Source of the DNA: an uncultured virus (IMG/VR IMGVR_UViG_3300031851_000015)
Taxonomy: Duplodnaviria > Heunggongvirae > Uroviricota > Caudoviricetes
IMG/VR virus record: IMGVR_UViG_3300031851_000015
Strand: one strand, 5' to 3'
DNA: 64,000 bases
The translations under genes and the position numbers were made by a program. The notes under the pieces are model-generated. The model was not told where the DNA came from and made no database searches. It was given only the letters and a program-made list of their open reading frames with translations. The stretch's first letter is position 1. Every line of letters starts with the position of its first letter. Below are positions 1 through 49,623 of the stretch, one piece after another.

Positions 1-49
1 CATTACGACAATTAAATAAATAGTAATAATTGTTAACATTATATCTTTC

Positions 50-96
50 AAAAAAAAAAAAAGTTTTATTAAACCCCCACCCCCGAAGGGGTGAGG
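50..96 (-). terminator. Rho-independent terminator (CACCCC-UUCG-GGGGUG stem, then a long U tract)
   Basis: Inverted repeat at 78-93 with a CGAA loop (UUCG on the minus strand) and an A run at 50-62, just downstream of the 106..357 gene. Confidence 0.8.
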
Positions 97-105
97 AAAA
101 ATTTA

Positions 106-357
106 TTATCCTTCTAAACGAGGATTAATTTTATCAAGTGTTTTAATCCAGTTACGGATTGATTTTACACAGCAACCTATTTCAAAGGCTACGCTATGGA
201 TATTTTCGCCGTTAACTACACGGCTTGCTGCAATTACACGATCGCCATTATTCCAACCTTTTGTTTTAGTTTTAAAGTAATAAGGTTGACCATGTTTAAT
301 CACGTAGTTGAAACTCTTTGTAAGTTCAGCGATAGTCGGTGTATTAGAAATAGTCAT
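106..357 (-). CDS. Small helix-turn-helix DNA-binding protein
   Basis: ATG at 357 with an AGGAGA RBS at 364-369; C-terminal ENIHSVAFEIGCCVKSIRNWIK resembles an HTH. Confidence 0.55.
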   Translation of the reverse strand: MTISNTPTIAELTKSFNYVIKHGQPYYFKTKTKGWNNGDRVIAASRVVNGENIHSVAFEIGCCVKSIRNWIKTLDKINPRLEG

Positions 358-491
358 TATAGTTCTCCTAGCTAGGGTTGATATCAGCTGTGCAGCTGAA
401 AAGACCCACTGCAAGCAATGGGCAAGTTAAACTACACAGGGAGGAGTTTCCATGAAACTCAAAATACTCTTCGAAAAGAGTATAAAGTCTT

Positions 492-677
492 TCACGTTGG
501 AGTATCAAAGTCACCTTGCATTTCTGCAATAGCATCAAAGATTTCTTCCATCTCAACTGTCGTATCAGGGCAGTCATCAGAATAGTCAACATAAGTATGT
601 GACCACTGTTCATCAATAGCTTTCACTAAGTTAGAGAAAGACATTGCTTCGTAGTATTCAGGTGTTTTTTTAGTCAT
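492..677 (-). CDS. Hypothetical acidic protein
   Basis: 61-aa ORF directly downstream of the 696-725 motif. Confidence 0.6.
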   Translation of the reverse strand: MTKKTPEYYEAMSFSNLVKAIDEQWSHTYVDYSDDCPDTTVEMEEIFDAIAEMQGDFDTPT

Positions 678-695
678 ATTTAACCCTTTATGGTA

Positions 696-725
696 TTCGT
701 TATAGATGCGTTATTTTTCTCACTT
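696..725 (-). promoter_or_regulatory. Class B putative promoter (AAGTGAGAAAAAYAACGCATCTATAAYGAA), copy 1
   Basis: 28/30 identical to 3201-3230; lies upstream of a minus-strand gene. Confidence 0.7.
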
Positions 726-1112
726 ATAGAAGATATGCTTACCAAGCTTAAACAACATAGTTTGATGTTTAGCCCAATAAGGTTTTACATAGTCTGCATG
801 ATAGTGAGTTGCGCCTTTTACGTCTAAGCTAATTTCATTATCAATAACCATTTGAGCAATCAATTGACTGTCCCTCCAAGCTATCCTATCAACCTTAGCT
901 TTAAATCTAGTAGGGTCATCATGTTTACCATCATGAGTCCAACTAAATTGTTTTTTATCCCAGACAACAGCACAAATATTGTCTGGGTGTTTTGGTGATT
1001 CAACACGGTTCATAGTAACTTCTGCGATAGCTACTTTCCCCATTAAATCTTCACCTCTACCTTCAAAGAAGATATTTAAAGCCAAACATGTGGCTGCTGC
1101 TGTAAGTAACAT
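720..1112 (-). CDS. Cell wall hydrolase, SleB/Hydrolase_2 family
   Basis: CLALNIFFEGRGE, V-MNRV, QFSW, GATHYHADYVKPYWA and GKHIFY motifs. Confidence 0.9.
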   Translation of the reverse strand: MLLTAAATCLALNIFFEGRGEDLMGKVAIAEVTMNRVESPKHPDNICAVVWDKKQFSWTHDGKHDDPTRFKAKVDRIAWRDSQLIAQMVIDNEISLDVKGATHYHADYVKPYWAKHQTMLFKLGKHIFYK

Positions 1113-1366
1113 TAGTCAATCATTCCTTTTTTGATTACTTCTTTACGTGTAAGCCAATTCATAAAGTTAAACAAATCTTCCATGCCCTCTAGCATTGTAG
1201 GGTTTGCCCAATTAGCTTGACCTTTGTTGTGCCATGAAACTTCAAACCAAGGTTCAAAAGTCCAAGAACATTTTACTACCGATATTTCGATATCATCAAA
1301 ATCTAGCAGGATTTGTTCATGGACGTCTCCCTCCATGACGGTAAAAAATTCATTAAACTCAGCCAT
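1112..1366 (-). CDS. Hypothetical protein
   Basis: 84-aa ORF with an AGGAG RBS, coupled to the downstream gene. Confidence 0.6.
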   Translation of the reverse strand: MAEFNEFFTVMEGDVHEQILLDFDDIEISVVKCSWTFEPWFEVSWHNKGQANWANPTMLEGMEDLFNFMNWLTRKEVIKKGMID

Positions 1367-1378
1367 GCTCTTGCTCCT

Positions 1379-1777
1379 TTAGCCGCCAGCGATTTCATTC
1401 CATATTCGTTTGTCCTTGTGCATAGTATAGCCTTCAGGACGGTAAAAGTTTTCCATATCTAAGGCTTCTTTGCGAGAAAGACCTTTATGTAGTACTTTTA
1501 AACCTATTTGTTCTTTTCTCCAAAACTTTTCTAACATTTGAAGAACAAATCTTTTCTTAGATCTAAGCCCTAAATTTACTTCACGTAACTCTAGTATATA
1601 ACGCTGAATAATATCATCATCAGTGTTATAAGGGCAAATACCTACATAGCCCCAACGAGGGCTTTTCCCATACCAACCTTGTGTGTTGCCAGTATAGAAA
1701 AAATGATATACTTTGTAATCTTTAGTTTTACAAGTTTCGTGATGAATTCGCATTTTATCAGAATACCATTTAGCCAT
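1379..1777 (-). CDS. GIY-YIG-like nuclease
   Basis: KVY...YVG motif pair, EALDME helix and terminal WNEIAGG; ATG at 1777 with a GAAAGGA RBS. Confidence 0.55.
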   Translation of the reverse strand: MAKWYSDKMRIHHETCKTKDYKVYHFFYTGNTQGWYGKSPRWGYVGICPYNTDDDIIQRYILELREVNLGLRSKKRFVLQMLEKFWRKEQIGLKVLHKGLSRKEALDMENFYRPEGYTMHKDKRIWNEIAGG

Positions 1778-1889
1778 TAAATATCCTTTCCCAAATATAA
1801 ACAAAAGGTGCTATAACAATTCCAAGAATTATAAAAAACACAATAACCAAGATAGTAAAAAGAAAATAGAAAAACAAAAACTCAACCAT
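1770..1889 (-). CDS. Small membrane protein (39 aa; not in the ORF track)
   Basis: MVEFLFFYFLFTILVIVFFIILGIVIAPFVYIWERIFNG; fills the gap and overlaps both neighbours. Confidence 0.55.
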   Translation of the reverse strand: MVEFLFFYFLFTILVIVFFIILGIVIAPFVYIWERIFNG

Positions 1890-2079
1890 TTTCTTTTTCC
1901 TCTTCAGTGCGAAAGTATTGAACTAATCTTAACTCATCAAGCTTAGAACGATATTTAGAAACAGAATCATACGCATCTGTGTATTCTATTTTATCTTTCC
2001 AATGTTCTATTTCTTGCAAGATATCTTCATCAGACCAAGGTTGATAAACAGCTAACAAATGTTTTCTCCAACTTTCCAT
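1882..2079 (-). CDS. Hypothetical protein
   Basis: 65-aa ORF with a GGAGG RBS. Confidence 0.6.
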   Translation of the reverse strand: MESWRKHLLAVYQPWSDEDILQEIEHWKDKIEYTDAYDSVSKYRSKLDELRLVQYFRTEEEKENG

Positions 2080-2433
2080 TTATACCTCCATCGCAGATTC
2101 AATTTCAACAATAGTTTTCTTATCGCCACCCGTAAAGGTGACGTAAGAATCATCTTCTGCCCAACAATGCAGATAAGACTCAAAAAAGTCTTTAGTAGGT
2201 TTGTATTCAGTAAATGTACCATGAATACTATCACCTTTACACAAACTTTGCACAGTCACTAAATGAGGAGGCACCTCATCAAAGACTAAGCATACTACCG
2301 CACCCTTAGAGTACATAGCAGCTTTTTCATATGACTCACACCAATGAGTTACGGAACGTACTTGTTTACCCTCAAGCAATTGTTGAGCCTCGGCACGAGT
2401 TGTGCCTCTATATAGTCTTAAAACAACAGTCAT
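2080..2433 (-). CDS. Putative ADP-ribosyltransferase-fold protein
   Basis: N-terminal LYRG strand, central THW-ES--KAA-Y segment and distal FTEY resemble the ART R-S-E layout. Confidence 0.4.
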   Translation of the reverse strand: MTVVLRLYRGTTRAEAQQLLEGKQVRSVTHWCESYEKAAMYSKGAVVCLVFDEVPPHLVTVQSLCKGDSIHGTFTEYKPTKDFFESYLHCWAEDDSYVTFTGGDKKTIVEIESAMEV

Positions 2434-2723
2434 GTTTTTCTCCTCTTGGTTGACGTTGTAAGTAAAGATGAAATAGCTCGAAATAATTCAGGCAAAAACA
2501 AACCTGTTATTACAAAACCATTTATAAATTCCATATCAGCATATTCTTCTGAAAAATGGAAATAATAAGCAATTGCTGCTACCCCAAGAACCGAAGGTAA
2601 TGCAGGTAGTTTTATATTAAAAGGTTTTCCAATAGTAAGCTGGAAGACTATTATAAATAAAAATCTTAAAGCAAAACCAAATAGAATTGCCCAAATGATT
2701 TCGTTTTCAAAGAAAGCTTGCAT
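2430..2723 (-). CDS. Membrane protein (about 3 TM segments)
   Basis: Hydrophobic segments; GAGGAG RBS. Confidence 0.6.
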   Translation of the reverse strand: MQAFFENEIIWAILFGFALRFLFIIVFQLTIGKPFNIKLPALPSVLGVAAIAYYFHFSEEYADMEFINGFVITGLFLPELFRAISSLLTTSTKRRKT

Positions 2724-2753
2724 TGTTTAACTCCTCGTTAAAAGCCCGTAGAA

Positions 2754-2773
2754 TAGGCGACCGAAGCCGCCTA
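2754..2773 (-). terminator. UUCG hairpin, probable weak terminator or processing site
   Basis: TAGGCGGC-TTCG-GTCGCCTA on the minus strand. Confidence 0.55.
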
Positions 2774-2783
2774 CTTTCAAATA

Positions 2784-3155
2784 TTAAACTTCACTATTTT
2801 CATTATAGAAATAGTTAGCAAATTTCCGCTCAAGCTCAGACGCTAAGTTTGAAGCAGATGCGTAAGTATCATATACAAACTCAGAAGTGTTTTCTGCAAC
2901 ATCGTACTCGTCAAAAACATAACACGTACCGTCTACGGCTAAAAGACTACCGCCAACAACTGCGCCAGTAACTGCGCCGTTAACAACTGCAATAGCAGGA
3001 TTTCCGGTAGCTACTAAGGCAATGCCACCAGATAACACAGCTGAACTTTTAACAGAGCCAGCAATGTCAACCCTTTCAACCCAGCTGCATATTCCAGCAG
3101 ACGCGGCAGTAGTAAGTGCAATAGTAGTAATGATAGATGCGATAAAAGTTTTCAT
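2784..3155 (-). CDS. Exported protein with a glycine-zipper-like hydrophobic region
   Basis: Signal peptide MKTFIASIITTIALTTAASA; GAVTGAVVGG repeats; first gene after the 3201-3230 motif. Confidence 0.6.
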   Translation of the reverse strand: MKTFIASIITTIALTTAASAGICSWVERVDIAGSVKSSAVLSGGIALVATGNPAIAVVNGAVTGAVVGGSLLAVDGTCYVFDEYDVAENTSEFVYDTYASASNLASELERKFANYFYNENSEV

Positions 3156-3200
3156 TTGGATTTCCTCTCTGGTTTCCACTTGGTTTACTGAACTTATTAG

Positions 3201-3230
3201 TTCATTATAGATGCGTTGTTTTTCTCACTT
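3201..3230 (-). promoter_or_regulatory. Class B putative promoter, copy 2
   Basis: Near-identical to 696-725; sits immediately after the tape-measure terminator, at the head of the small-gene block. Confidence 0.7.
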
Positions 3231-3250
3231 TTTTAGCTGACTTTTTTGAT

Positions 3251-3276
3251 AAAAAAGGCCACTCCGAAGAGTGACC
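3251..3276 (-). terminator. Rho-independent terminator ending the structural operon
   Basis: GGTCACTC-TTCG-GAGTGGCC-TTTTTT just after the TMP stop codon. Confidence 0.85.
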
Positions 3277-3282
3277 CTATAG

Positions 3283-6200
3283 TTATCTACCTTTGTAGTT
3301 ATTTTCTTTGTTGGTTGCATTAACCCCTGCAGAAATAGTAGGTAGCATTTTAATAATTTCTTGTCTTGTTTGGCGAGATACGTCACCACTAATTGACAAG
3401 TTAACTACGTTTTGTTGTTTGCTAGTATTGTCTTGATATGCCTTAACTTTATTAGCTGGAACTACTAATTCTCCTGGAGTTAGCATTGCAGGAACGCTAT
3501 CAACTCCTGCTTTAGAATAAGGAGTTGAAGGTACTATACCTCCGTTATTAAGTCCAAACAAACTTAGTCCTGTAGAAATTAAACTCATCCAGCCGCCACC
3601 TGCACCGCCTGAACCACCTGAACCGCCCATGCCCCCAAGGAGACTACTAATACTAGATGACAAATTTTCACTAAGACCACTAAAGAAAGGACCAATACTA
3701 CTTATTATATTGCCTAAACCTCCCCCTTCACCAGTACCACTAGTTATTTTTGAAATACCAGTTTTAATAGAGTTAATCATACCACCAAGAAGACCACCTT
3801 CACCAAATAAGGGAGAAGTAAGCTCTTCGCCTTCTTTAGCCATAGGAGAAGCTTTACCACCAAATTTAGATGCACCGCCGCCTAATTGTTGTAGTTGACC
3901 CATCATGCCTGTAGAAGTATATTCTCCAGATTCATCTTTTTCCATAGTACCAAACAAGCTATCAGTAAAACCTTGACTAAAAGAATTTAACCAATTAGTA
4001 GTAAAACTATCTATTAAGTCAATTTCCATAAAGTCGCCAGTGTTTAAAGCTGTTCTAAACCCATTTGCAAAGTCTTGTTTAATACCTTCAGCAAAAGTTG
4101 CCCCAGATGCTAACTCTTTAGCAGATAATGCATTTGCCTTTTTCTTTACTTCGTTTGACTTTTCTGTAATAGTAGTTTCTTGATTTATTAAATTATTTCT
4201 TTCAGCTTGTAAAGGAATTATTCTTTCATGTAAAACAAACATTTTAAGATCTTGAGCTTGTTCTAACACTTTTTGATCAGTATTAGTTTTAAGTGCTAAT
4301 TCTGCTTCTGCAAGTGTTAAACGAAATCTATACAATTGGTTATCTATTTCTTTTACTGCTTGTTGTACAGCTTTAGTTGCTTTTACACTTTGCAACGGAG
4401 TATCAACGGTATTAGCTTGTCGAGTTACTACGCCGCCTATACTTGCTCTACCTGAAGGATTACCCCCTGCAAATCCTGCAACCATTCCGCTATTAATAGC
4501 TTCAAGTATAGGTCTAAACTTAGAAGTTTGTTTTGCATTTACAACAAATTCTTTATTAGAAAGCATAGCAGGAATTTTGTCGTCAGTAGGACCACCTTCA
4601 CCTGTTACATACCCCCCTGTAGCAAACTTTTTAATGCGATTTTTTTTATCAAAGTAATCAAAAATAAAACTATTATTTTTAAACAACATTGAATTAACCG
4701 CATCTGCTCCGGTTTCAATAGCCCTACCTACAGAATTTTTAGGCATTTCTTTTGTTAATTGTCTTTTTGAATTAATTACTTTTTCTATAAAATCTTCATA
4801 ATTATCAACACCAAAAATTGAAACAGCTTTATTCATTAAATCATCATCCAATGTTTTATGTAAAGCCAAAATATAACTACCATGAGACTTAGAAATACTA
4901 TCATTTAAAACATCAGGGGGAGCAATAGACAGATCTTTTGCAAATAAATTTGCCCTTGTTTCACCACTTAGTACGTCACCTTTGTTATCAATCATAGCCA
5001 TCATGTCTGTATAATAACTATAAAGTTGTCCTTTATAAAATCCAGGTTCATAAGTGCTACCGCTTTTATCCCAATGTCCTGGATTTTTTATTGACATTCC
5101 TAAAAAGTCTAAAGCGTGTTTAGTTTCATGCAAACCAATATTATAACTAGTAAAGAAATCATAAAGACTATTAGTGTCTTCTAATTTTTTTGTATGCATT
5201 TCCATTAGAGGAATAGGAATACCAAAATCATCTGGATAACCAACACCCTCACCAATAGTTAACATACTACTCCATGGATTTGAAACACCAAAATCATAGA
5301 AAAATCCGCCTTCGTCATTTTCAAATCTATCAGCTATCTTATTTTTATAAACATCTAATTGTTTTTGAAATGCAGATCTTTTATAACCACTAACTTGCTC
5401 TATTGATTCATCATTAAAAGGAAGACTATCTAATATTGGTTTTGACTTGTCAAATCCTCCTCCATCAGGTGTTGCTCTGAGTGAAAGTTTATCTTTAATT
5501 CTTTCAAACGCAGACCTTTGATCAAATGGCCCCATTCTTGGAGGTAAATCTTCTCCTTGCATATGAGGAGGTAAAAGATTTTTATCTATTTTAGTTGGGT
5601 TAAATAAGCCATTACCTATGTAATGATCCAACATACCTTTAAAGAAAAAACCTGTTGCACCAATTCCTCCATATTTAAATGTATTCATAAATTGATCAAA
5701 AAGTCTTCTACGGTTTATTAAACTATAAAGCTCTCTAGTAGCACCAACCATAGGTCCAAAAAGTCCACCTAATCCTTTTGCAGATTTTTTAGGAGAAAAA
5801 GTACCTATGCCTGTTGCAAGATCCCACGCACCTTTTCCCATTCTATTAACGCCTTTACCAAATTTTATAGGCAAATCTGCGTAAGTTTTAATAGATCCAA
5901 AAGCTCCTCCGTAAACAGCTCCTAATATTGCTTCATTTGCACCATTAGCAATTGCTTTGTCAAGCTCAAAATCCCAATCAATTAATCCAAAAGGTTCTTT
6001 AACATTTTCATTAATCCAAGGTTCAAGATTGTCTTTTTTAACCCTACTATGATACATGTTTTTTATTATAGGAGTACCTCGTTGCTGCGTTTGATGAGCG
6101 AGATAAGTTAATCCTTTGTAGCCTGCTTGTGCTATTAATTTAGTAGAATCCCATGCAAATTGAGGCCATTCTATAGCTGTCTCAGGGAATTCAGGAACAG

Positions 6201-9200
6201 AAATACCTACGTGTTCTAACAATTCACCTAATTTAGGAAAAATTTCTTCAGGCTTATCAATGGCCCATTTAAGCGATTCCATAACACCTGTCATTCTTGA
6301 ATAGTTTTCAACATCTGATAATGTCTTAATACCAGTTGTATCTATTATATCTATAGCCGTAGTAGGGTTGCCTAAAGGTGCATCTGCAAGATGTGAAAGT
6401 CCCATACCCTCTAATACGTTTGGAATTTGATCAGAGGGTAATCCATTATTTTCAAAAAATTGAGTAAGACTAGTATTTTGCAAGTCATTAGCTTTTACAA
6501 AAGAATCAAATTTATCAAGAGCTAATAATGATGAATCACTTAATCCTCCTGAAAGTCCTCCTGTTATTTCAGGTAAAGAGCCAGCTAACCCACCTCCGCT
6601 TTTAAATTGAGGCATTTGACCTTTATTTAAGGCGTCCATAAAACTAGGACCAAACTTTTTAACTGCAGAAGCTTGTACTACATACTCTCCATTAGACAAC
6701 ATGTGGGGTATTTTGTCATCTTTAGGACCACCTGCTCCTGTAATTATACCTCCTGATGATTTATAAAAATCTTTATAATAGCCATAAAAAGGGTTCTGTT
6801 TATTCATTTGAGGAGGTAAAGAAATATCAAGATTTTCTGGTTTAATAGTACTTTGTAAAGTTCCTATTGCATCACTTAAACGCTTAATATCTGCTGCTGT
6901 ATTTGAAACCAACATTCCATTACGGAGTATATCGGCTCTAACTCTTTCTTGTTGTATTTTATTTGCAGTAAGTAAACCTTCGTTTCCAATAGGATTTTGT
7001 TTTAGTTCGCTTTCAATATCTACAAGACGTTGTAATCTTTGTTCTGCAGTTTCAAACAAATTTTGGTATCGAGTTAATTCTTTTTCTGCAACTCCAAGCT
7101 CACCTTGTTTTAATCTAATAGTACTTTTTGTAGCTTCTTGAGCTTCAACTGAATCAGCTACCGCTTTTGGATCTCCACCTGTATAATCTTCACCAAATAT
7201 AGCACCACGAAATCCTGCATAAATCTCTCTACCTAAGTCTTGAAAGGCTGATCTTATTTCAGAACTGATAAACAATTCATAAATAGACCCAGCAATTCCT
7301 GCTCCAATTACTGCATAAGGGTTTTTAATACCTGAAGTAAAAGCAATACCAGCACCTTTTGCAAAACCTATTGAAGTTTTTCTAATAATTTGAGAAAGAA
7401 TACTATCAGCTGCTGTTTCATCTAGCCCAAGTTTTATTTGACCTTCTTTTATAAATTCATCAGCGCCTGAAAATATAAAGTCTAAAGTAAAAGCAGCACC
7501 AAGACCTTTTAAAAACATTTTACCAAACTTTTTACCTTGCTCGGCTATTTTTGAACTATCTGACGCAATAACACCTAAAGTTAAACCTTCAAGTAATGCA
7601 AAAGCTACTGAATTTTTAGTAAACATATTACTTAATAAATGTAGTCCAAGCCCTATTATAGCACCAAGGCCACGGCCCGATGCAATAAATAAAGGAACAG
7701 CTATTGCTAAAGCGCCAGCAAAAGCATTAATAAAATTATTATTAAATTCTGTACCTTCAAACAAACCAGAAATAATACCTTTCCCAAGTGACGAAAGAAA
7801 AGCACTAATATTATTAACTATTTTCGAAGATCCTTCTTGATCTACGCCTAAAAAAGCTTCTTGAAGACTATCTACAATACCTTTAGAAAATTCTTCTATT
7901 TCTTTTTGTCTTTCAGGATCATCCGCAACGCCTTTCATAAAAGCTTGATAACTTCCAAAAGTTAAAAGAACAGGAAGACCTCTACTAAATGCGCCTTGTA
8001 CAACGCTAACTAAAGCAAGACCAGCACCAATAGCAGCAAGTTGTAAGGCTGCAGCAGTAGTTTCTGGAAATACTATTGCAAGACCTACACCAGTAGCAGC
8101 TGCTGCAAGCAGCCCTTTATTTTCATCTAAAAAGTCAAAACTATTTTGTAAAATACCTGGAGTTTTTACGCTAACTCCCGCTTCTATAAATACTTCTTTT
8201 CCAAAAACAGAATCTTCTATTTTTTTAATTTGATCGTTTATTTGTCGAGAAAGATCTGTATTAGCCTCTGGTATTAATCCTTTAATAAAATCTTTTGAAG
8301 ATGCAGCTTTTGCGTTTAAATCAAGAATTTTTGTTATTTCATCGTAATAACCTTTAAACGCTGTTGTTGACTTTTTTAAAATAGGCTCATAGCCACCTAA
8401 TCCGTCTACAGTTGCAGCAATTGAACTAGATACATTAGTTATTGCTTCCCCGATACTATTAAATAAAGGTGTAACGGTGTCTCTTAAACTTAAAATTAAA
8501 CTTATAACACTACCACTAAATTTAGTTAAGCCATTTAAAAATTTGTCTAATATTCCTTCATCATTTTCAATTTCCTTAGCATTAAGAGAAATTGGAACAA
8601 GTAAAGATTGAGATTGTGTTGGTTTTTTATCAAATAACGCTGAATACAATTCTTTAATATTTTCTACAAAGGTTTTAAGTGCTGTGCTTACTTTTGTAAA
8701 ATTTTCTTCAAATTTAGGAGGTAATTCAAATTGCCCAAAGAAAGAAGAAAAATCAAATTGTTTTGTATTTTTGTCGTAAAAGCCTTCAAAGGTGATTATA
8801 CCTTTAGCTTGTTCTAAAAAGTTATTAAAATTAGTTTTAAGATTTTCTGCTGCAGCAGCAGGATCAAATTTTACAGTAAAAATATTAGTTAATGGCTCAA
8901 ATGTTTTCTTAATATCACTAATAAATATTGCTGCTCTTAATTTATATAGCCTAAAAGTTACTTCAGCATTGTCTGTAAAATATTTTAAGCCTTTAGTAAT
9001 AGATTCAATTCCTGTAATAACTGCATTAGACCAGCCAGTATTTTTTGAAATTAAATTTAATGCACTTAATAATTGAAACCTTAAAGCATTACTTACTGAG
9101 TCTACTGTTTTCTCAATCAAAGTAAATTCTTGAGCAATTTCTGGAGCAGCTTTTTGAATAGCTTTTAATACGGCTTCAGTTGTTAGCTTACCTTCTGCAG

Positions 9201-9789
9201 CTGCGTCTCTAAGCTGACCAAAAGGAATACCAATACCATCAGCAATAGCTCTAGCAATACGAGGTGTTTGTTCTAAAACAGAGTTAAGTTCTTGCCCTCT
9301 AAGTTGACCTGAAGCTAAACCTTGACCAAATTGAACAATGGCTGCTCTAGCAGACTCAGAAGAAGCACCAGAAATAGTAACAGCTTGGTTAATTGTTCTT
9401 GTAACATCTAAAAGTTCTTTTGCGCTAGTGCCGCTTCCTCTTAAAGCTAACCCAAATCTGTTAAAAGTTTCTGCTGTAGTGCTAAACGAGACTCGTGTCT
9501 GAGATGATACTCGTGCTAAAGATTGCATAGTAGAGTTTAATTCTCTACCTCTGCCAGTAACAAGAGCAATTTTATTTTCCATGTTAGTAATAGAGTCAGA
9601 CGCTCTTGTAATGCCTTTTGTAAAAGATGCAAGGCTTAAAAACGCTGCACCCCCAATAGCTATTTTATTAAAAGCGCTTTGTAATCTTTTAGTAGACTGC
9701 TCAATATTACCAACAGATTTTTGTAACTTACCTAGATCTTGTCTAGCTTGAGTACTGTTACTGCGTACTCTAATTTCTACTCCACTCAT
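3283..9789 (-). CDS. Tail tape measure protein with an inserted HExxH metallopeptidase-like region
   Basis: N-terminal tape-measure domain (QFGQGLASGQLRGQELNSVLEQ); three GG-x-G--D-IPAML--GE-V motifs; HETKH at 5116-5130; follows the tail chaperones. Confidence 0.9.
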   Translation of the reverse strand: MSGVEIRVRSNSTQARQDLGKLQKSVGNIEQSTKRLQSAFNKIAIGGAAFLSLASFTKGITRASDSITNMENKIALVTGRGRELNSTMQSLARVSSQTRVSFSTTAETFNRFGLALRGSGTSAKELLDVTRTINQAVTISGASSESARAAIVQFGQGLASGQLRGQELNSVLEQTPRIARAIADGIGIPFGQLRDAAAEGKLTTEAVLKAIQKAAPEIAQEFTLIEKTVDSVSNALRFQLLSALNLISKNTGWSNAVITGIESITKGLKYFTDNAEVTFRLYKLRAAIFISDIKKTFEPLTNIFTVKFDPAAAAENLKTNFNNFLEQAKGIITFEGFYDKNTKQFDFSSFFGQFELPPKFEENFTKVSTALKTFVENIKELYSALFDKKPTQSQSLLVPISLNAKEIENDEGILDKFLNGLTKFSGSVISLILSLRDTVTPLFNSIGEAITNVSSSIAATVDGLGGYEPILKKSTTAFKGYYDEITKILDLNAKAASSKDFIKGLIPEANTDLSRQINDQIKKIEDSVFGKEVFIEAGVSVKTPGILQNSFDFLDENKGLLAAAATGVGLAIVFPETTAAALQLAAIGAGLALVSVVQGAFSRGLPVLLTFGSYQAFMKGVADDPERQKEIEEFSKGIVDSLQEAFLGVDQEGSSKIVNNISAFLSSLGKGIISGLFEGTEFNNNFINAFAGALAIAVPLFIASGRGLGAIIGLGLHLLSNMFTKNSVAFALLEGLTLGVIASDSSKIAEQGKKFGKMFLKGLGAAFTLDFIFSGADEFIKEGQIKLGLDETAADSILSQIIRKTSIGFAKGAGIAFTSGIKNPYAVIGAGIAGSIYELFISSEIRSAFQDLGREIYAGFRGAIFGEDYTGGDPKAVADSVEAQEATKSTIRLKQGELGVAEKELTRYQNLFETAEQRLQRLVDIESELKQNPIGNEGLLTANKIQQERVRADILRNGMLVSNTAADIKRLSDAIGTLQSTIKPENLDISLPPQMNKQNPFYGYYKDFYKSSGGIITGAGGPKDDKIPHMLSNGEYVVQASAVKKFGPSFMDALNKGQMPQFKSGGGLAGSLPEITGGLSGGLSDSSLLALDKFDSFVKANDLQNTSLTQFFENNGLPSDQIPNVLEGMGLSHLADAPLGNPTTAIDIIDTTGIKTLSDVENYSRMTGVMESLKWAIDKPEEIFPKLGELLEHVGISVPEFPETAIEWPQFAWDSTKLIAQAGYKGLTYLAHQTQQRGTPIIKNMYHSRVKKDNLEPWINENVKEPFGLIDWDFELDKAIANGANEAILGAVYGGAFGSIKTYADLPIKFGKGVNRMGKGAWDLATGIGTFSPKKSAKGLGGLFGPMVGATRELYSLINRRRLFDQFMNTFKYGGIGATGFFFKGMLDHYIGNGLFNPTKIDKNLLPPHMQGEDLPPRMGPFDQRSAFERIKDKLSLRATPDGGGFDKSKPILDSLPFNDESIEQVSGYKRSAFQKQLDVYKNKIADRFENDEGGFFYDFGVSNPWSSMLTIGEGVGYPDDFGIPIPLMEMHTKKLEDTNSLYDFFTSYNIGLHETKHALDFLGMSIKNPGHWDKSGSTYEPGFYKGQLYSYYTDMMAMIDNKGDVLSGETRANLFAKDLSIAPPDVLNDSISKSHGSYILALHKTLDDDLMNKAVSIFGVDNYEDFIEKVINSKRQLTKEMPKNSVGRAIETGADAVNSMLFKNNSFIFDYFDKKNRIKKFATGGYVTGEGGPTDDKIPAMLSNKEFVVNAKQTSKFRPILEAINSGMVAGFAGGNPSGRASIGGVVTRQANTVDTPLQSVKATKAVQQAVKEIDNQLYRFRLTLAEAELALKTNTDQKVLEQAQDLKMFVLHERIIPLQAERNNLINQETTITEKSNEVKKKANALSAKELASGATFAEGIKQDFANGFRTALNTGDFMEIDLIDSFTTNWLNSFSQGFTDSLFGTMEKDESGEYTSTGMMGQLQQLGGGASKFGGKASPMAKEGEELTSPLFGEGGLLGGMINSIKTGISKITSGTGEGGGLGNIISSIGPFFSGLSENLSSSISSLLGGMGGSGGSGGAGGGWMSLISTGLSLFGLNNGGIVPSTPYSKAGVDSVPAMLTPGELVVPANKVKAYQDNTSKQQNVVNLSISGDVSRQTRQEIIKMLPTISAGVNATNKENNYKGR

Positions 9790-9808
9790 ATGGACCTCCT
9801 TAATAAAA

Positions 9809-9854
9809 TTGCCCCCTAACGATTCTCTTATATTAGAGAGCCATCAGAGGGCAA
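9809..9854 (-). other. Long G-U-containing RNA hairpin (terminator or RNase III-type site)
   Basis: TTGCCCTCTGATGG...TCGTTAGGGGGCAA pairs on the minus strand using G-U. Confidence 0.55.
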
Positions 9855-9861
9855 AGTATTC

Positions 9862-10281
9862 TTAATCAGGGGTTGGTATGCCAATTTTAACTAGCACTTG
9901 TTCAATAAAGTATTTTGGTGCTTGTTTACTATGGCCATTATTTAGTACACTAATATAGTCTACATTATTAAATATTCTTCCTTCTTGCTTTGCATTGGGG
10001 TTAAGCCCTAAAGCAAGTGCTACTAGTGTTTTTTTATTACCAATCCCTAGTGCTTCTTTAATAAGCAAACCAGTATCTAAAGTTGGTCCTGAGATAGTTT
10101 TTTCATTTTCCCAACCTTGTCTAGCTTTACCAGTATCAACGGGAGTAACTATTTTAAGTTGTTCAGTAGCATAATCTATTTTTTCATGTATATCTGCAGT
10201 AGCAAGACTTGAAACTTCTTGTTCAATTCTTTTCATTTCTTTTTGAAAATCAGCTACATCAATATTTACTTTGATAGACAT
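9862..10281 (-). CDS. Neck/tail completion protein, HK97 gp10-like
   Basis: TPVDTG-AR-GW and NNVDYI--LNNGHSKQAP motifs. Confidence 0.8.
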   Translation of the reverse strand: MSIKVNIDVADFQKEMKRIEQEVSSLATADIHEKIDYATEQLKIVTPVDTGKARQGWENEKTISGPTLDTGLLIKEALGIGNKKTLVALALGLNPNAKQEGRIFNNVDYISVLNNGHSKQAPKYFIEQVLVKIGIPTPD

Positions 10282-10618
10282 TATTTCTGTCTCCAGTCTA
10301 AATTATCACCATCTCTAGCAGCTAACATTTTCTTAAGAAATTCGCCTTTAGGTACTGCTCTATCAGGTTCTTGTAATAGCTTTTTATTTGTATTTTCTTT
10401 TATAGCTTTTAAAGAAGGAAATAAGTTTTCTCCGGATTCTTTAACACCTTGTGCTTTTAAAAGTAAATATGTACGTTGGTCTTCTTGCCAACCAATTGGT
10501 CTTTTATGAAAAAATTCTATCCATCTAAGAAGTTCATTATAAGGCATTTCTTCTTTTAAAATATACACAGGCATTTTTAAATGATATGCAATTTCAAAAA
10601 GAGTTTCATCCTCTTGAG
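10281..10618 (-). CDS. Tail assembly chaperone, -1 frameshift extension (gpGT-like)
   Basis: Open -1 frame LTQEDETLFEIAYHLKMPVY... continues from the slippery site at 10622-10628. Confidence 0.75.
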
Positions 10619-10924
10619 TTAGTTTCCCTCAGAAGTTCCACCAGATAACCCAGAGAATTCAAGAATATTTTCTGATAATTCGTTTAATGCAGCAATAGGA
10701 AAAGTACTAAACTCTTCGTTACTTAAGTCTTCTGCACCTACTACAGCAATTTTAATTACACCGCGAAGGAGTTCTGTTTGAGAGTCTTCAGCTTTGCTCT
10801 TAGAAGTCTTTTTAATCATGTTTTGGACTTTAAGAACTTCACCTACTGACAATTGACGAACTTCAACTTCGTCTCCCATAAAAGGGAATTTTTTAGTAAT
10901 TACTTTTCCAACTAAATGTTTCAT
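10619..10924 (-). CDS. Tail assembly chaperone (gpG-like)
   Basis: Starts MKHLVG at 10924; lies between the tail tube and TMP genes; ends at G GGA AAC TAA. Confidence 0.75.
   Translation of the reverse strand: MKHLVGKVITKKFPFMGDEVEVRQLSVGEVLKVQNMIKKTSKSKAEDSQTELLRGVIKIAVVGAEDLSNEEFSTFPIAALNELSENILEFSGLSGGTSEGN
10622..10628 (-). other. Programmed -1 ribosomal frameshift heptamer GGGAAAC
   Basis: X XXY YYZ heptamer immediately before the stop codon; the -1 frame is open for about 110 codons. Confidence 0.85.
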
Positions 10925-10931
10925 ATTTTTC

Positions 10932-11171
10932 CTAACTAATCTTATCTTTTTCTGTAAATAAATCTGGGTTGTTTGCTTGAAAGTCGTCAAGCATTTTTCT
11001 GCACGTATGTAATACTGATAGGGTTTCCATAATTTCTTTTCCAATTTCTGAGTCACTATCAAAATCTTGAAAGCGCTCAAAACTCTTACGAATACTAATA
11101 TCTACACTTCGGCGCATGTGCCTAAAGGTGGTTCGCATTACAAACGTTTTACTAAACGGTTTGTCTGTCAT
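10932..11171 (-). CDS. Hypothetical protein in the tail module
   Basis: MTDKPFSKTF..., 79 aa. Confidence 0.6.
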   Translation of the reverse strand: MTDKPFSKTFVMRTTFRHMRRSVDISIRKSFERFQDFDSDSEIGKEIMETLSVLHTCRKMLDDFQANNPDLFTEKDKIS

Positions 11172-11194
11172 ACTATATCTTTCTAATAAGTTAA

Positions 11195-11218
11195 GGAAGC
11201 CCCAATTAAGGAGCTTCC
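11195..11218 (-). terminator. Hairpin after the major tail protein (attenuating terminator)
   Basis: GGAAGCTCC-TTAATT-GGGGCTTCC followed by TTAACTT. Confidence 0.6.
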
Positions 11219-11232
11219 AAAGTATTTTTAAT

Positions 11233-11763
11233 TTATGGTAGTGTAACTGGTCCAAAGAAATCAGACTGAGTTGACATAGTAACTGTAGCAGTTGTAGCGT
11301 CTGTCAACGCAGGATTTACTAGGATAGCTTCGATTTTACCCGTAAAGTAAAACTCTGTGTTACCATAAGATAACGCTGTATTTGCAGTGTCAAGACTTGC
11401 TGCAAGCGTAGTTGCTTGTGAACACATCATAAAGCGGAATGCACCTTGATTCCCAATAAGTGCATGGAAATCATCCATGTCATCAGGAATATAGTTAACA
11501 GTAACTTCAAGTGTTGGTGCGTCAGATTGACCTTGCACCTGAGAAGAAGTTGACTGACCATAAACAGGTACGTTTACGATGTTTGCAGGAGTACCAATTG
11601 AAGGGAATTCACGTACTGACGGAATTCGCTTAATAGCTGATGCATTTGCTGTTACAAACAAACCAGCGTACTCAGCAGCAGTGTCTACAGAAGCTGCAGG
11701 TGCTGCATTGTGAAAGTCTAGGTATGTAAAGATACCTGAACTCAAAGATGAAATATGAGCCAT
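11233..11763 (-). CDS. Major tail (tube) protein
   Basis: Size, position, and the VREFPSIGTPANIVNVPVYG...GQSDAPTLEVTVNY pattern typical of siphovirus tube proteins. Confidence 0.8.
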   Translation of the reverse strand: MAHISSLSSGIFTYLDFHNAAPAASVDTAAEYAGLFVTANASAIKRIPSVREFPSIGTPANIVNVPVYGQSTSSQVQGQSDAPTLEVTVNYIPDDMDDFHALIGNQGAFRFMMCSQATTLAASLDTANTALSYGNTEFYFTGKIEAILVNPALTDATTATVTMSTQSDFFGPVTLP

Positions 11764-11766
11764 TTG

Positions 11767-12168
11767 TTATTCTCCGTATATTTTAAATGGTATTATATAT
11801 TGTGCGCTATAAAGCGACTGATTAGCTGGGTCTAGCCCTTCTACATTTAAATAAGATTTTCCAAACTCTGTCTTATTAGTTAAAATTTTATTTTCAAATG
11901 AGTTGTCTAGTATATCTGATATTTGCATGATGCGAGTTTGTCCCTCACCTGCTTTAACAAATATTCTAACTATTAATAAACCTGAAAGGCTTTTATCACC
12001 GCCATAAGCTAAGTGATCAGAAGCACTAGGAAGAATATTAAATCGACAAAATTCATTACTGTTTGAGATTGAACCCTGATAATTTTCAGGATACATTGCT
12101 ATGTTATTACTTGTCCACGCAGTAGCAGCAAAAACACTATTAATATCTGCTAAGATGTTATGAAACAT
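11767..12168 (-). CDS. Tail terminator protein
   Basis: Position before the tube gene; SGLLIVRIFV--GEG motif. Confidence 0.65.
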   Translation of the reverse strand: MFHNILADINSVFAATAWTSNNIAMYPENYQGSISNSNEFCRFNILPSASDHLAYGGDKSLSGLLIVRIFVKAGEGQTRIMQISDILDNSFENKILTNKTEFGKSYLNVEGLDPANQSLYSAQYIIPFKIYGE

Positions 12169-14936: not shown

Positions 14937-17900
14937 CTATGGCCCGATACCATACCAATCCTGCCCGTCTTTGAGCGGGGCTAGTATGTCTTTTCTTGTT
15001 ATTTTATTAGGAGGGTCAATAAGACCCTGATCTTTAGCTTCTCTAAGAAGCCTTTGGTAAGTTCTATAAGACATCCCTTGTCTGCGCATTTCTCTAAGGG
15101 TTTTTCTTATAGTATCGCCTTCTAGGGCATCTGCATAGATGGTCCTTAAAGCATCTTTTGCACGTCTTGCTTCACCTATATTAGTAAAGAAAGCATCGTG
15201 AATTGTTCCACTGTCTACGTTATTTTTACGCGCCCATAAATGAAAGCGCCTAACTATAACAGCATCGTTACTGTGGTTTCCATTAACACCTAACCCAATC
15301 CTAGCATCATTAAGAGAGCCTTTGCCTAAAAGCTTTCCATCTTCAGCACTAGATTCGTATATGTTAGATATTTTTCTGTTTGTAACCGGATCTCTAAATT
15401 CAATACGCTCTTGAATTTTAGGACGGTATCTTTGTGTCATTATCTTGCCATCAAATGTAACCCACGGAATATCAACTTTTTGAGTTTCTTCAACGTAGGC
15501 TTTAGCAACTTGTTTCCAATAGTTAATGAAATTATCAGTAACAGGTGCTCTATCAGCAAGATTTTTAGACATAATTCTAGATATTTCTGAGAACTCTTTT
15601 GGCCCAATAATACCCCTGCGAGCATTAGTAAGCTTATTAACAAAGTCACCAACATCAGGATGTATGTCTTGAGCTTGTTTTAATAGTGTACGACCAACGG
15701 GTTCGTTCTTATTAATTAACTCTACAAGTTCACTTCTAAAGCTTTTAAGTTCTTCTACTGTACCTGTTGCGCCTAAGCGTTCAGCTACTTTAATTTTACC
15801 GTCAACAACTCTTAGGTTAGTACCTAGATTATCTTTAGTAACTGTTATGAAGCCTTTTTCGTCAAGTACTTTAGACAACTTATTAGCCACGTTAGCGGTT
15901 TTCGTAGCAGCTCCAGCACCATAAAATGATACCATGTTTTGAGCTTTGGCTGCTTTAGCAAGATCTTCCCATGTAAGATTAGCATCTCTGAGTGCAGGTA
16001 TTTTAAGAAATTCTGGGTCATTAACTGTATCCATTGCAACTAAGTCATAAAGACGGTTTTTTTGAGTTGTAGCTAAAACATTTGAGGCTTGAGATACTGC
16101 CCTGTCGCCTGTAGAAAGCCCGATGATTTGAGCTCCACTAGATGAGGCATCATTTTCAATCATAAGTTTTGTTTTATAACTAGTAAGAGGTTTGCCTTGT
16201 TTAAGGTGTTTATCTATTCTAGCATATTCAATTGCCATTCTACCCATCTTAGGTACTTCTGGTCCTTCTAAACCTCGTATTAACGGGTGTTCGAGAAACT
16301 CTCTAAGACGTCTATCTCTTTGAGTTTTAGACATCATAATATTACCTAGCTCAATAATCTTAGCTTCATTACGTTTAAATATAGCATTACGACCTGCTTG
16401 AGTAAGTGCTTCAGTTCCTGGGCCGATTAAAGCTCCCATTTGAATTCTAAGTTCATCTAAAGCTTCAGTGCTCATATTAACAGCTTTACCTGAATTAAGA
16501 AAAGGTCTAACTAGTTCGCCGCCCGTAGGTGTAAGATATCCTCTGTGATATACTCGCCCCCTAGAATCAATAAACGCTTGAGTCCTAAAATTTTTCCCTC
16601 TTTGAGCATGATACTTAGCAGTAGACATAAGTCCATAACCTTGTTCTCCTCGATTTAAAATTTCATGACGAAACTCATTAATACTGTCATAGTACTTGGA
16701 TCTCCCTCTAGGATCTCTGAATCTAGCAATATCGTCCATAAACCCGAAGAACTCGTTATCAACTCCATATTCAACATCCATTACATGATTAAGCATTTGA
16801 GCCATCTCACGATCAATTTGTTTAGGATCATAATCTGGAAATTTATCTCTAGAAATTAAAGGTATTCCTGTTTCATTACCTCTAGCATCTACGTATGTCT
16901 TTTTATTAGCTTTTACATAAAGCCTATCTCGATCATATATAGTTCCAAGTCTTCTAGCAATAGTAACTTTACGTTCTGATTCTTGAAGTTTAAGTAAAGT
17001 TTTATCTACAACAATTACTTCTCTAGAAATACTATCTGCCCAACCACCTGAAGCTCTACCTGTATCTAAATCTAAAACACCTCTTCGAGTTTTACCTCTA
17101 AATTGAACTTTAATAAGACCTTGATCTACCATAAAGTCAAGTATTTTAGATCCTTCTTTATGAAAGTCTTGCAAAGTATGTTTAGTAAAGGGTATGATAT
17201 TTTCAAAGTCTTTAGAAAATTTTTTACCAATATTGATGGCTAAAGTGTCATAATCAGTGGATTGACCTGACGCCACTAGCTTAGCAATATTAGTTAAACT
17301 ATCTAAAGCTTTTTCATCAAATAATTTAGAAGTAGGTTTTTTGTTTATAATTAAAAACTCAGCATCTAAAAGTCTACGTATAGTTTCTCTATTACGAGCA
17401 GCTAACTTAGTAATCAAAGAGTCAGAAGGTTCAGTTACTAGCTTTTGTAATTTTAAAAGTTTAGCAAAACCAGAATCTTTTTTTAATTGCTTAATAAGTT
17501 GTTTTTTATTAGGGTATTTATCAGTGAACTTTTTAAAATAAATTCTTAATGGCGCTCTGCCTTTAAAGAACATTTTAGTGGCTAATTTTTTACCTTCAGT
17601 TCTACGCCATGCATCAATAAATCTTTGATCTTTTAGCTGGCTATCAATTAGGTTTTCAAAAGTATAATACTTACCCATAATTTGAACTTGAGGTTTGTCT
17701 TGAGATAAATAACTAACAAACATTTCAGAACGCTTGCGAGATCGTGTATCTAACAGCCTAGAAACGTTTTGAACAGCAAATCTATTTTCTGCTCTTAGTA
17801 CAGCCGAAACATCATTCCAAGGTTTTTTATCTTTAGCATAACGTTCAAATACAACTCTTAAGTTTTCAATTACAACAGTTTGTTGATTAACTGAAACTTT

Positions 17901-19319: not shown

Positions 19320-19769
19320 TTAAAATTTTGATAGAAACCTTGCAATGTGATGTACAAAAGGTAACATTGTAAGTGCCATTAATAAATTTAAGCCTGTATG
19401 AGCTATTGCTATTCTTAGCGTATCACCCTTAGGCATTCCGTCAGATACTAGCAAACCTGCTAGCCAAATAGTTCCTGTAGTTCCAATGTTTGCCCCCAGT
19501 ACCGCTGCTACAGCAGCAGGTAAAGGAACAACCCCTGAAGCTACTAGCGCAATAATTGCAGTAGTAGAAAGAGAAGACGACTGCCAAAGCAGTGTCATTA
19601 TAATTGCTCCAAAGAACATATAAATCGGATTAGCAATAAACCAATTTAAATGGTCTACATTACCTATCGACTTCATTCCTCCGGAAAACATTTTAAGCCC
19701 TACATAAAATACTATAAGGCCAACTACGATTTGTAAGTAATTGTTTGTTAGTACCTGTAAATAATTCAT
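19320..19769 (-). CDS. Na+/phosphate cotransporter family protein (single repeat)
   Basis: QSSS and GANIGTT signature motifs; hydrophobic. Confidence 0.85.
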   Translation of the reverse strand: MNYLQVLTNNYLQIVVGLIVFYVGLKMFSGGMKSIGNVDHLNWFIANPIYMFFGAIIMTLLWQSSSLSTTAIIALVASGVVPLPAAVAAVLGANIGTTGTIWLAGLLVSDGMPKGDTLRIAIAHTGLNLLMALTMLPFVHHIARFLSKF

Positions 19770-21754: not shown

Positions 21755-21759
21755 GTGAA

Positions 21760-49620: not shown

Positions 49621-49623
49621 TTT

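Follow-up and report, generated by a model that had tools for sequence, protein, structure and literature searches.

The window described here is the whole stretch of 64,000 nucleotides (nt) analysed from an uncultured virus (IMG/VR record IMGVR_UViG_3300031851_000015; Caudoviricetes), a siphophage with 36.8% guanine plus cytosine, and our subject is a repeated intergenic element in it, termed class B, which heads two operons of small early genes. Both class B copies lie on the minus strand, the strand of all large window genes. In this direction the gene order begins with replication genes (family A DNA polymerase, MazG, 5'-3' exonuclease, primase-helicase, ribonucleotide reductase), continues with terminase, fibres and distal tail, portal, a MuF head protein fused to an RNA polymerase (MuF-RNAP), capsid and tail, and closes with the tape-measure gene (3283-9789, minus strand; 2168 amino acids (aa); PF20155, E = 2.9e-49), behind which class B and the early genes follow. 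We propose that class B is an early promoter of this Naomviridae-like marine siphophage, which would be read by the phage's own MuF-RNAP, and that the early transcripts would lead to a second RNA polymerase gene (RNAP2), found just beyond position 1 in a closely related contig. The features needed for the argument are the following, open reading frames being abbreviated as ORFs:

3255-3278, minus strand: intrinsic terminator (hairpin and T-run) ending the tape-measure operon, directly upstream of class B copy 1; its position is conserved in relatives.
3201-3234, minus strand: class B copy 1, A6-GTGAGA-AAAACAAC-GCATCTATAAT-GAA, with the full consensus; predicted start at G3203.
3189-3204, minus strand: 5' stem-loop TGAACT-AATA-AGTTCA, starting at the last T of TATAAT.
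720-3155, minus strand: first early operon with eight small ORFs (2784-3155, 2430-2723, 2080-2433, 1882-2079, 1770-1889, 1379-1780, 1112-1366 and, as the last, the hydrolase 720-1112).
696-729, minus strand: class B copy 2, a weaker copy with CTATAA instead of the A-tract and TATAAC instead of TATAAT; predicted start at G698.
106-677, minus strand: second early operon, consisting of a 61-aa ORF (492-677) and an 84-aa ORF (106-360).
50-96, minus strand: strong terminator (GC stem and 13 T) separating the early operons from RNAP2; the same arrangement occurs in most of 32 relatives.
1-39, minus strand: start only of a tiny hydrophobic leader ORF that precedes RNAP2.
14937-19292, minus strand: MuF-RNAP, 1451 aa, located between the genes for portal and capsid and consisting of an N-terminal MuF head-protein domain fused to a divergent RNA polymerase of the T7 type.

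With up to three mismatches tolerated, the class B 30-mer has two matches in the window, at 696-725 and 3201-3230, and the chance expectation is 0 (no match across 100 dinucleotide-preserving shuffles). The copies agree at 28 of 30 bases, as a preliminary description of this DNA had reported, and differ at position 13 (T/C) and position 27 (C/T); the further statements of that description, that one copy follows the terminator closing the structural operon (here 3278-3255, closing the tape-measure gene) and that 13 nt separate TATAAT from GTGAGA, were likewise reproduced. Copy 1 is located directly 3' of this terminator and 48 nt before the ATG at 3155, and copy 2 shares bases with the TGA stop of the hydrolase and precedes the ATG at 677 by 21 nt, with homologues in the related contigs L001, L003, L020 and L089. 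In related contigs, class B sites lie after terminators, on the coding strand and 20-70 nt ahead of start codons.

For a wider comparison, sites were gathered with the 9-mer CATCTATAA alone to avoid circularity; 106 of the 115 hits with enough flank have GAG at a fixed offset, and the other nine comprise three slight variants and six unrelated coding matches. Computed from these 106 sites of diverged contexts, the conserved element measures 34 nt and is longer than the 30-mer (3201-3234 and 696-729). If the G after TATAAT is counted as +1, information is restricted to -31 to +3, with values near zero on both flanks, and the layout is an A-tract, S-Y-GAGA, an 8-nt spacer, GCATCTATAAT and G; the logo reads A5-6, G/C, T, GAGA, AAA(A), W, Y, A, A, N, GCATCTATAAT, G, A. 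The claim that the whole spacer is conserved held only in part across relatives: the gap between GAGA and GCATC is constant at 8 nt, but its sequence varies even between copies within the same contigs (AAAACAAC, TTTTTGGG, AAATTGGA, AAGCTAGC), for which reason we treat class B as a bipartite element with a fixed gap. A weight matrix of the 106 sites gave 54.6 bits for copy 1 and 41.2 bits for copy 2, the rest of the 64 kb remaining below 12 bits. This contiguous, gene-oriented, repeated and intergenic block exceeds the approximately 20 bp expected of a promoter of a T7-like RNA polymerase.

The positions directly behind TATAAT offer a hint to the start of transcription. Pairing of a stem-loop begins at -1 in 65 of the 106 sites and at -2 in a further 17 (82 together), and at least nine compensatory stem variants occur with loops of varying length, e.g., GATAC/GTATC, GATATA/TATATC, GATAAA/TTTATC, GAACT/AGTTC, GAACC/GGTTC and GATAGA/TCTATC. 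The remaining 24 sites have no stem starting at either position, and 36 of all 106 are without a stable hairpin by the criterion of a minimum free energy of at most -3 kcal/mol, window copy 696 being among both. Since the stem covaries, it would act as RNA, and the RNA would consequently have to begin at or before the G after TATAAT. On this geometry, transcription would start at the end of TATAAT, as in T7-type promoters, whereas a sigma-70 start would lie 6-8 nt further downstream, inside the stem-loop. A hairpin promoter in the style of phage N4 was considered and rejected, as the inverted repeat starts at -1, runs downstream, varies in loop length and is optional. A middle promoter of the T4 MotA type, with an activator box about 13 nt from the -10 hexamer, was also rejected, since conservation is continuous; moreover, we know of no MotA-type factor that is injected.

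The same geometry bears on one alternative, according to which the host RNA polymerase uses class B as a strong early promoter as in the T7 paradigm, with sigma-70 relying on TATAAT and the A-tract and with the MuF-RNAP having another role or target. T7-like phages express their RNA polymerase gene from host promoters, an A-rich tract lies upstream, and TATAAT is perfect in all three class B variants described below. However, the -35-like hexamer expected at 16-18 bp is missing (AAAAGT or ATAAGT sits 17 bp upstream), no TGn extension is present (ATC precedes TATAAT), and a sigma-70 scan of positions 1-4000 called 13 sites, with 11.5 expected, neither class B copy among them. Conservation also reaches beyond the hexamer positions over about 34 bp, including the bases between and upstream, and the high information at -31 to -17 and -11 to -7 is unexpected for sigma-70, as is a covarying stem-loop beginning at -1, within which a sigma-70 start would fall.

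The 106 sites stem from marine viral contigs related to the window and from the roseophages DSS3_VP1 and DSS3_PM1, and class B has a particular place in these sequences. The exact 24-nt core was found in 20 IMG/VR stretches, and the pattern widened to the variant of roseophage DSS3_VP1 in 76 stretches with unrelated flanks; among 50,697 phage records it occurs only in DSS3_VP1 (three places) and DSS3_PM1 (two places). In DSS3_VP1 the weight matrix finds two sites; class B stands there at 35,795, immediately behind the terminator of the tape-measure gene, and at 36,242. A further sample was assembled around RNAP2, and is thus blind to class B; it comprised 80 loci, of which eight without upstream DNA were dropped and 72 examined. 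At least 3 kb of upstream sequence is available in 43 of these 72, and 40 of the 43 carry one to five class B sites on the coding strand, 0.36-6.6 kb upstream of RNAP2, while the remaining three carry a variant form. Only five hits fell elsewhere (four downstream of RNAP2 and one on the opposite strand), each a two-mismatch match inside coding sequence without A-tract or TATAATGA; all credible sites in this sample are located on the coding strand upstream of RNAP2. In Pelagibacter phages Kolga and Aegir, RNAP2 has a homologue with 32% identity, and the MuF protein of Kolga bears a peptidase-like domain in place of the RNA polymerase; the weight matrix finds no class B site above 10 bits in Kolga. 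Kolga, without an RNA polymerase on MuF and without class B, serves as a phyletic control for a reading of class B by the MuF-RNAP, in a single comparison.

Two further observations concern this distribution. DSS3_VP1 (L021 and L022) has at 67,793 a core-only copy (GCATCTATAATGA) without the GAGA and A-tract half, located after a terminator and upstream of gp032 and of nicotinamide adenine dinucleotide salvage genes, which may represent a weaker or differently regulated early promoter. EBPR siphovirus 1 (L094) encodes a distant MuF-RNAP (25,723-31,141; 28-40% identical) that is interrupted by an HNH endonuclease gene. The weight matrix gives this phage no class B site above 10 bits, and the 50 of 54 kb examined contain no separate RNAP2. 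Its only abundant repeat was tried as a promoter and rejected, being a coding 15-nt tandem.

The regular placement of class B also bears on the question of whether it is a promoter at all. Instead, it could be a protein-binding operator, or an RNA leader or processing element in transcripts reading through from the structural operon. The inverted repeat downstream of many copies could be an operator, some contigs carry further conserved motifs nearby (TACGGGCTTTG and an inverted half-site resembling the class A motif described below), and the 84-aa early ORF of the same region looks like a helix-turn-helix protein, with no Pfam match. Such a role is nevertheless very unlikely in our view, as the sites stand directly after strong terminators and before ribosome-binding sites, their orientation is strictly that of the genes (the single opposite-strand hit being a chance match), and no promoter would be visible for the early genes or RNAP2 without class B. 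Furthermore, the inverted repeat varies with compensatory changes, which fits an RNA structure better, and it is absent from about one quarter of the sites, including 696.

One of the nearby motifs, TACGGGCTTT(G/T), is recurrent. In the window it stands at 2740-2750 (minus strand), behind a hairpin that separates the first early gene from the second, and relatives carry it 5-20 nt ahead of class B in one orientation or the other (TACGGGCTTTG or CAAAGCCCGTA).

Two polymerases are available to such a phage. The MuF-RNAP combines a MuF domain (PF04233, E = 3.9e-14) with an RNA polymerase domain (PF00940, 28.6 bits at a cut-off of 22) and shares 62% identity across its whole length with the 'head morphogenesis' proteins of the roseophages DSS3_VP1 and DSS3_PM1 (Naomviridae), the only close cultured relatives by this match. 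A search for homologues yielded 280 proteins at E <= 0.001; identities of the 120 listed range over 52-98%, and approximately 1450-1600 aa and the same two domains are found in nearly all of those listed. Searched as a single sequence against PDB sequences, the protein gave no polymerase match, and its kinship with T7 RNA polymerase becomes visible only with a family profile and a predicted fold. The profile matches T7 RNA polymerase with E = 3.4e-5, aligning T7 residues 724-841 including the specificity loop as well as a D-x-RGR-x-Y motif near T7 421. In an alignment of 26 homologues, NDASSSGAQ, K..M..YGAG and IHDAFF are invariant, which we take to be the T7 catalytic motifs A, B and C. When modelled with AlphaFold, the C-terminal 752 aa reached a predicted local distance difference test score of 83.4 and a predicted template modelling score of 0.78, and Foldseek matched this model to T7 RNA polymerase (E = 5e-17, about 800 aligned columns) and also to mitochondrial RNA polymerases. 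The MuF domain and the place of the gene between portal and capsid suggest that the MuF-RNAP is packaged in the capsid. MuF domains are described as carriers of effector domains whose delivery into host cells is likely (PMC5512222).

RNAP2 is a 717-aa T7-like single chain (E = 4e-62 to T7 RNA polymerase, aligned over T7 402-883). The preliminary description had predicted a second polymerase gene outside the window for the case that the MuF-RNAP reads class B, and such a gene was found: in contig L029, which is 95.8% identical to window positions 1-1779, the RNAP2 ATG lies 85 nt past window position 1, and in DSS3_VP1 the counterpart is gp080, a 732-aa 'RNA polymerase' (42,436-44,634) downstream of the small genes that follow the tape measure. 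RNAP2 homologues adjoin class B in 41 of the loci fetched; directly upstream of RNAP2, no copy of class A or class B was seen in the 32 relatives.

Many of these 32 relatives show a terminator, then a tiny hydrophobic ORF (MLTIIAIYLIVVMI... in L029, 4286-4400) and then a conserved hairpin before the RNAP2 ribosome-binding site, an arrangement that looks like an attenuator or a translational control of polymerase dosage. The 84-aa ORF 106-360 (minus strand), directly ahead of the RNAP2 terminator, resembles by eye a helix-turn-helix protein (..SIHSVAFEIGCCVKSIRNWIKTL..), with neither a Pfam nor a PHROG match; a similar C-terminal sequence also precedes RNAP2 in DSS3_VP1, and the product is a candidate transcription cofactor or switch.

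The other repeated motif, class A, heads replication and structural operons. In the window it reads AATACCTGACGTTTAAGAATAA and occurs at 58151, 49598, 21825 and 21733, with a weak fifth match at 52811. Classes A and B are the only repeated intergenic motifs noticed among the 20 window gaps of at least 35 nt. The class A sites are placed as follows:

58151-58172, minus strand: putative class A promoter (AATACCTGACGTTAAAGAACAA) upstream of the 5'-3' exonuclease gene.
49598-49619, minus strand: putative class A promoter ahead of a 334-nt structured stretch, possibly a leader, and the terminase region.
21733-21846, minus strand: two putative class A promoters in tandem (21825-21846 and 21733-21754) ahead of the portal, MuF-RNAP and capsid operon.

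Class A has the size of a T7-type promoter, spanning about -17 to +5. The two motif classes partition the genome, and the RNAP2 gene sits in the region headed by class B. No intergenic class A site occurs between class B and RNAP2 in the loci and genomes examined; the first recognised class A-like site follows 8-200 nt past the RNAP2 stop, before a conserved gene starting with MAILKN. The class A motif of DSS3_VP1 (ATAGGKTRCGTTAAAGAGGGG) has 17 matches at up to four mismatches, all on the coding strand and several within ORFs, and none of them is intergenic between 35,795 and 45,926.

Several peculiarities accompany class A. The tandem copies at 21733-21846 are identical, 92 nt apart and separated by a terminator-like hairpin (GAGGAAGCCCTTCGGGGCTTCTTC). 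Directly after the copy at 49598 lies a gene-free stretch of 334 nt (49290-49623, minus strand) that folds into a long stem (-78 kcal/mol, z = -4.7, none of 100 shuffles as stable); it has no Rfam match and may be a non-coding RNA driven by class A or a structured leader. An inverted class-A-like half-site stands just upstream of the first class B copy, between terminator and copy 1 (window 3236-3250), and changes with the class A of the respective lineage: on the opposite strand, the window has AGCTGAC, to be compared with CCTGACG in class A, and DSS3_VP1 (L021, 35,770-35,788) has GGGTGCGTT, the 5' half of its own class A. This half-site, which was not seen in G003-type or L040-type lineages, could be a binding or roadblock site for RNAP2 or a silent antisense promoter.

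Both motif classes vary between lineages, and it is this variation that would link each of them to one polymerase. Three types of class B exist (GAGA/GCATC, GAGA/GTATC and GGGG/CCCTC), each uniform over all copies in a contig: GTATC replaces GCATC at every copy in genomes G002-G005 and relatives, and in L244, L235 and L231 all six copies have GGGG for GAGA together with CCCTC for GCATC. The types change in step with the loop of the MuF-RNAP that aligns with the T7 specificity loop. Canonical class B goes along with Q-[EQAD]-R-I-x-F ... G-R-[KRLM] (window, VP1, L062/G011, L073, L082, L093, G010), GTATC with Q-T-S-I-E-F ... R-M-V-R (14 distinct loop sequences from P0088-type loci, class B being checked directly in G002-G005) and CCCTC with Q-V-R-I-D-F ... 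G-Q-K (G007). In a HMMER alignment the changed residues stand opposite T7 R746 and R756, base-contacting residues of the specificity loop. Class A falls into at least five types, and the part of RNAP2 that aligns with the T7 specificity loop varies along with them; by lineage, class A reads:

CCTGACGTTAAAGAA: type of the window.
GGGTGCGTTAAAGAGGGG: type of VP1.
AGGG(T/G)ACGCTAAAG: type of G002-G005.
CCTAATGACCAAAGG or TTATGACTAA: type of L040, L058, L062, L045, L244, L235 and L231.

The two associations can be separated where the histories of the polymerases disagree. Compared with the window, G011 has a C-terminal MuF-RNAP part that is 70% identical and the same class B, while its RNAP2 is 54% identical and its class A belongs to a different type. 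Compared with G007, in contrast, its RNAP2 is 61% identical (the closest pair for G007) with the same class A family, while the MuF-RNAP is 50% identical and class B of a different type. It follows from this discordance that the class B type goes with the MuF-RNAP, 16-20 kb away in the head module, and not with the adjoining RNAP2.

These relations speak against a swapped or shared assignment, in which RNAP2 would read class B, autoregulated after a weak host start, and the MuF-RNAP would read class A. Both polymerases are T7-like, both motifs end in an AT-rich segment followed by a putative purine start, and class B is physically linked to the RNAP2 gene; yet class B varies with the MuF-RNAP, even between the two genomes with the closest RNAP2s and a shared class A family, and the canonical T7 promoter size of class A and the way its variants follow the RNAP2 loop point the other way. 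Such a scheme would also face a bootstrapping problem, RNAP2 being downstream of class B with no other promoter in view, and an injected polymerase reading class A would turn on the structural genes at once. Altogether, we consider it most improbable, the least probable of the readings weighed here.

With the host RNA polymerase as reader of class B, it is hard to account for the joint switch of GAGA to GGGG and of GCATC to CCCTC or GTATC, which affects all copies within a contig and accompanies the change of the MuF-RNAP loop. The host assignment would moreover leave the MuF-RNAP without a conserved target, A and B being the sole repeated intergenic motifs seen in the window. Class B is more conserved than class A, which fits a conserved host reader, but on the evidence as a whole we regard the host assignment as unlikely. 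The preliminary description had offered the host enzyme and the virion-borne MuF-RNAP side by side as possible readers of class B; we infer from distribution, geometry and co-variation that the MuF-RNAP is the better candidate of the two.

The resulting cascade would begin in the virion. The MuF domain would bring the polymerase into the capsid, and the MuF-RNAP would enter the cell together with the DNA. There it would recognise the approximately 34-bp class B element, the specificity loop reading GCATC at -11 to -7, with TATAAT as the melting segment and the upstream GAGA and A-tract as extra contacts. As judged from the geometry, transcription would start at the G after TATAAT (G3203 and G698), and the RNAs would often open with a protective stem-loop. 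Early transcripts would span small membrane proteins and proteins without assigned function, the hydrolase and the 84-aa ORF and reach RNAP2 by read-through of the terminator at about 50-96. RNAP2 would then fire class A (58151, 49598, 21825 and 21733) and thereby switch on replication and structural genes, among them the gene that provides the MuF-RNAP for the next generation. Taken as a whole, this chain, from the capsid-delivered MuF-RNAP firing class B through early genes and RNAP2 to class A, appears to us on balance probable.

A number of points weigh against this cascade. TATAAT is invariant in all three class B types and could be used by host sigma-70. Class B is far more conserved than class A, and the MuF-RNAP is overall no more conserved than RNAP2; this excess could mean that class B is read by a more conserved polymerase, for instance that of the host. 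The co-variation comprises only two class B type changes among about seven lineages with both polymerases, the variant lineages are also the most divergent ones overall, and the mapping of residues to bases depends on a remote alignment to T7 RNA polymerase and on the contacts made by the T7 enzyme. Expression of RNAP2 would need read-through of a strong terminator. In DSS3_VP1, a class A-like match with two mismatches lies at 38,533 within the hydrolase gene, between class B and RNAP2. Among the public RNA data (24 runs listed, the four best examined as contigs, all from related strains), contigs are interrupted at the shared motif, with loose ends at 3201/3202 and 3233/3234, and a start site is not visible in them. 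As they extend over the tape-measure gene as well, carry-over of DNA is possible; they are uninformative on expression.

The DNA chemistry of the cultured relatives was considered as a further argument. In DSS3_VP1 and DSS3_PM1, deoxyuridine (dU) replaces deoxythymidine (dT), and in the corresponding paper mass spectrometry is described only for nucleosides, 'RNA polymerase', 'RNAP' and 'MuF' do not appear, and 'promoter' and 'transcription' appear once, on an intron (PMC8323127). A 2025 paper on the dU enzymes of both phages mentions none of RNA polymerase, RNAP, MuF, promoter or transcription. Homologues of the VP1 enzymes Dcd and Dtm were not found in the window, dU-DNA being shown only for DSS3_VP1/PM1, and for this reason the argument from dU was given little weight; it belongs with the points against the cascade.

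RNA polymerases packaged in virions are known in N4-like, crAss-like, jumbo and P23-45-like phages. In N4 (Schitoviridae), the virion vRNAP is followed by RNAPII and then by the host RNA polymerase, and the early promoters are highly conserved. The vRNAP, a protein of 3500 aa, reads a DNA hairpin with a short stem and a 3-nt loop upstream of the start on a single-stranded template. The N4-like cascade suggested in the preliminary description stands as far as its logic is concerned, since in both cases a capsid-delivered T7-like polymerase would start the programme and the early genes include a second phage RNA polymerase. It does not extend to the promoter: class B is not a hairpin promoter of the N4 type, being a linear element of 34 bp whose hairpin is downstream and optional. 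Further differences are the two subunits of N4 RNAPII in contrast to the single 717-aa chain of RNAP2 and the reading of N4 late genes by the host enzyme. With class II and III promoters of T7, T3 and SP6, class B shares a contiguous block ending at the predicted start, a TATA-like melting segment, a predicted purine start, a putative region for the specificity loop at about -11 to -7 and transcripts that would begin with a stem-loop; class A shares their size of about -17 to +5. Unlike those promoters, class B reaches to -31 with a second block (A-tract and S-Y-GAGA) and an 8-nt variable gap, and the early genes of T7, including its RNA polymerase gene, are read by the host enzyme.

Next to N4, it is Thermus phage P23-45 whose logic the proposed cascade would resemble most closely. 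This siphovirus has two polymerases and two distinct motifs, and its virion polymerase, fused to a virion structural protein, transcribes a few pre-early genes including the gene for the second phage RNA polymerase, gp64 (PMC10770324). Its two dissimilar motifs belong to one polymerase each, and relatives without the virion polymerase are also without its motif, which our argument on Kolga mirrors (PMC10770324). The P23-45 enzymes are, however, two-barrel polymerases related to cellular RNA polymerases, whereas both enzymes here are T7-like and single-subunit; the fusion partner is the tape measure in P23-45 and the MuF head protein here; its late genes use the host RNA polymerase, whereas class A heads structural operons too; and its system was demonstrated by experiment, while that of the window is deduced from sequence (PMC10770324). 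AR9 and PBS1 are phages with dU-DNA and with virion and non-virion RNA polymerases, and AR9 injects the virion enzyme for early genes and uses the second one later (PMC5449584). This is reminiscent of DSS3_VP1/PM1 as nearest cultured relatives with dU-DNA (PMC8323127), but AR9 is a jumbo myovirus with multisubunit, beta/beta'-like polymerases, and dU is known in the group treated here only for these two phages.

In the open-access literature searched, we found no account of a MuF-fused T7-like RNA polymerase in siphophages of ordinary size with a long bipartite promoter and a second T7-like RNA polymerase downstream. New aspects of the proposed system are that both polymerases are T7-like and single-subunit, that MuF is the carrier, that the early promoter would be linear and bipartite with 34 bp, and that class A would also serve structural genes. 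The cultured members of the MuF-RNAP family are abundant roseophages with dU-DNA. If the proposal is true, it would explain how transcription starts in these phages, add a new route of polymerase delivery and provide a natural library of mutually orthogonal pairs of single-subunit polymerases and promoters, with at least three class B and at least five class A types, whose diverged members might aid studies of specificity-loop recognition and the design of orthogonal expression tools. The two motifs would also provide a direct map of early versus middle and late transcription units in this phage family. The broader view that widespread marine siphophages (Naomviridae and relatives, at least some with dU-DNA) run their whole programme without host RNA polymerase, by means of two T7-like enzymes with 34-bp bipartite and 17-22-bp promoters and with pairs that diversified independently, is a tentative one, which we rate as somewhat short of probable.

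Apart from the transcription system, the window holds several genes of interest. A nucleotide search with positions 1-12000 against phage records gave no match, and Rfam and tRNA scans of the window were without matches. In the early region, a PHROGs scan of the ten early ORFs matched the hydrolase alone (720-1112), a SleB-type cell wall hydrolase (PF07486, E = 1.4e-23), and ORFs 106-360 and 492-677 are without a Pfam match; the first early operon includes homologues of VP1 gp093 and gp091. Contigs of all four public RNA runs skip 112 nt at 1774-1885, deleting the 39-aa ORF 1770-1889, which represents an indel polymorphism among related strains. ORF 40942-45285 (minus strand, 1447 aa), adjoining a T4 gp36-like fibre gene, has no Pfam match and consists mostly of degenerate 21-nt (7-residue) repeats in dozens of copies with 60-80% identity. 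Between the portal and MuF-RNAP genes, ORF 19320-19769 (minus strand, 149 aa) matches the Na+/Pi cotransporter family (PF02690, E = 2.2e-14), and together with a PhoH gene at 33315-33998 it suggests phosphate-related auxiliary genes in this phage.

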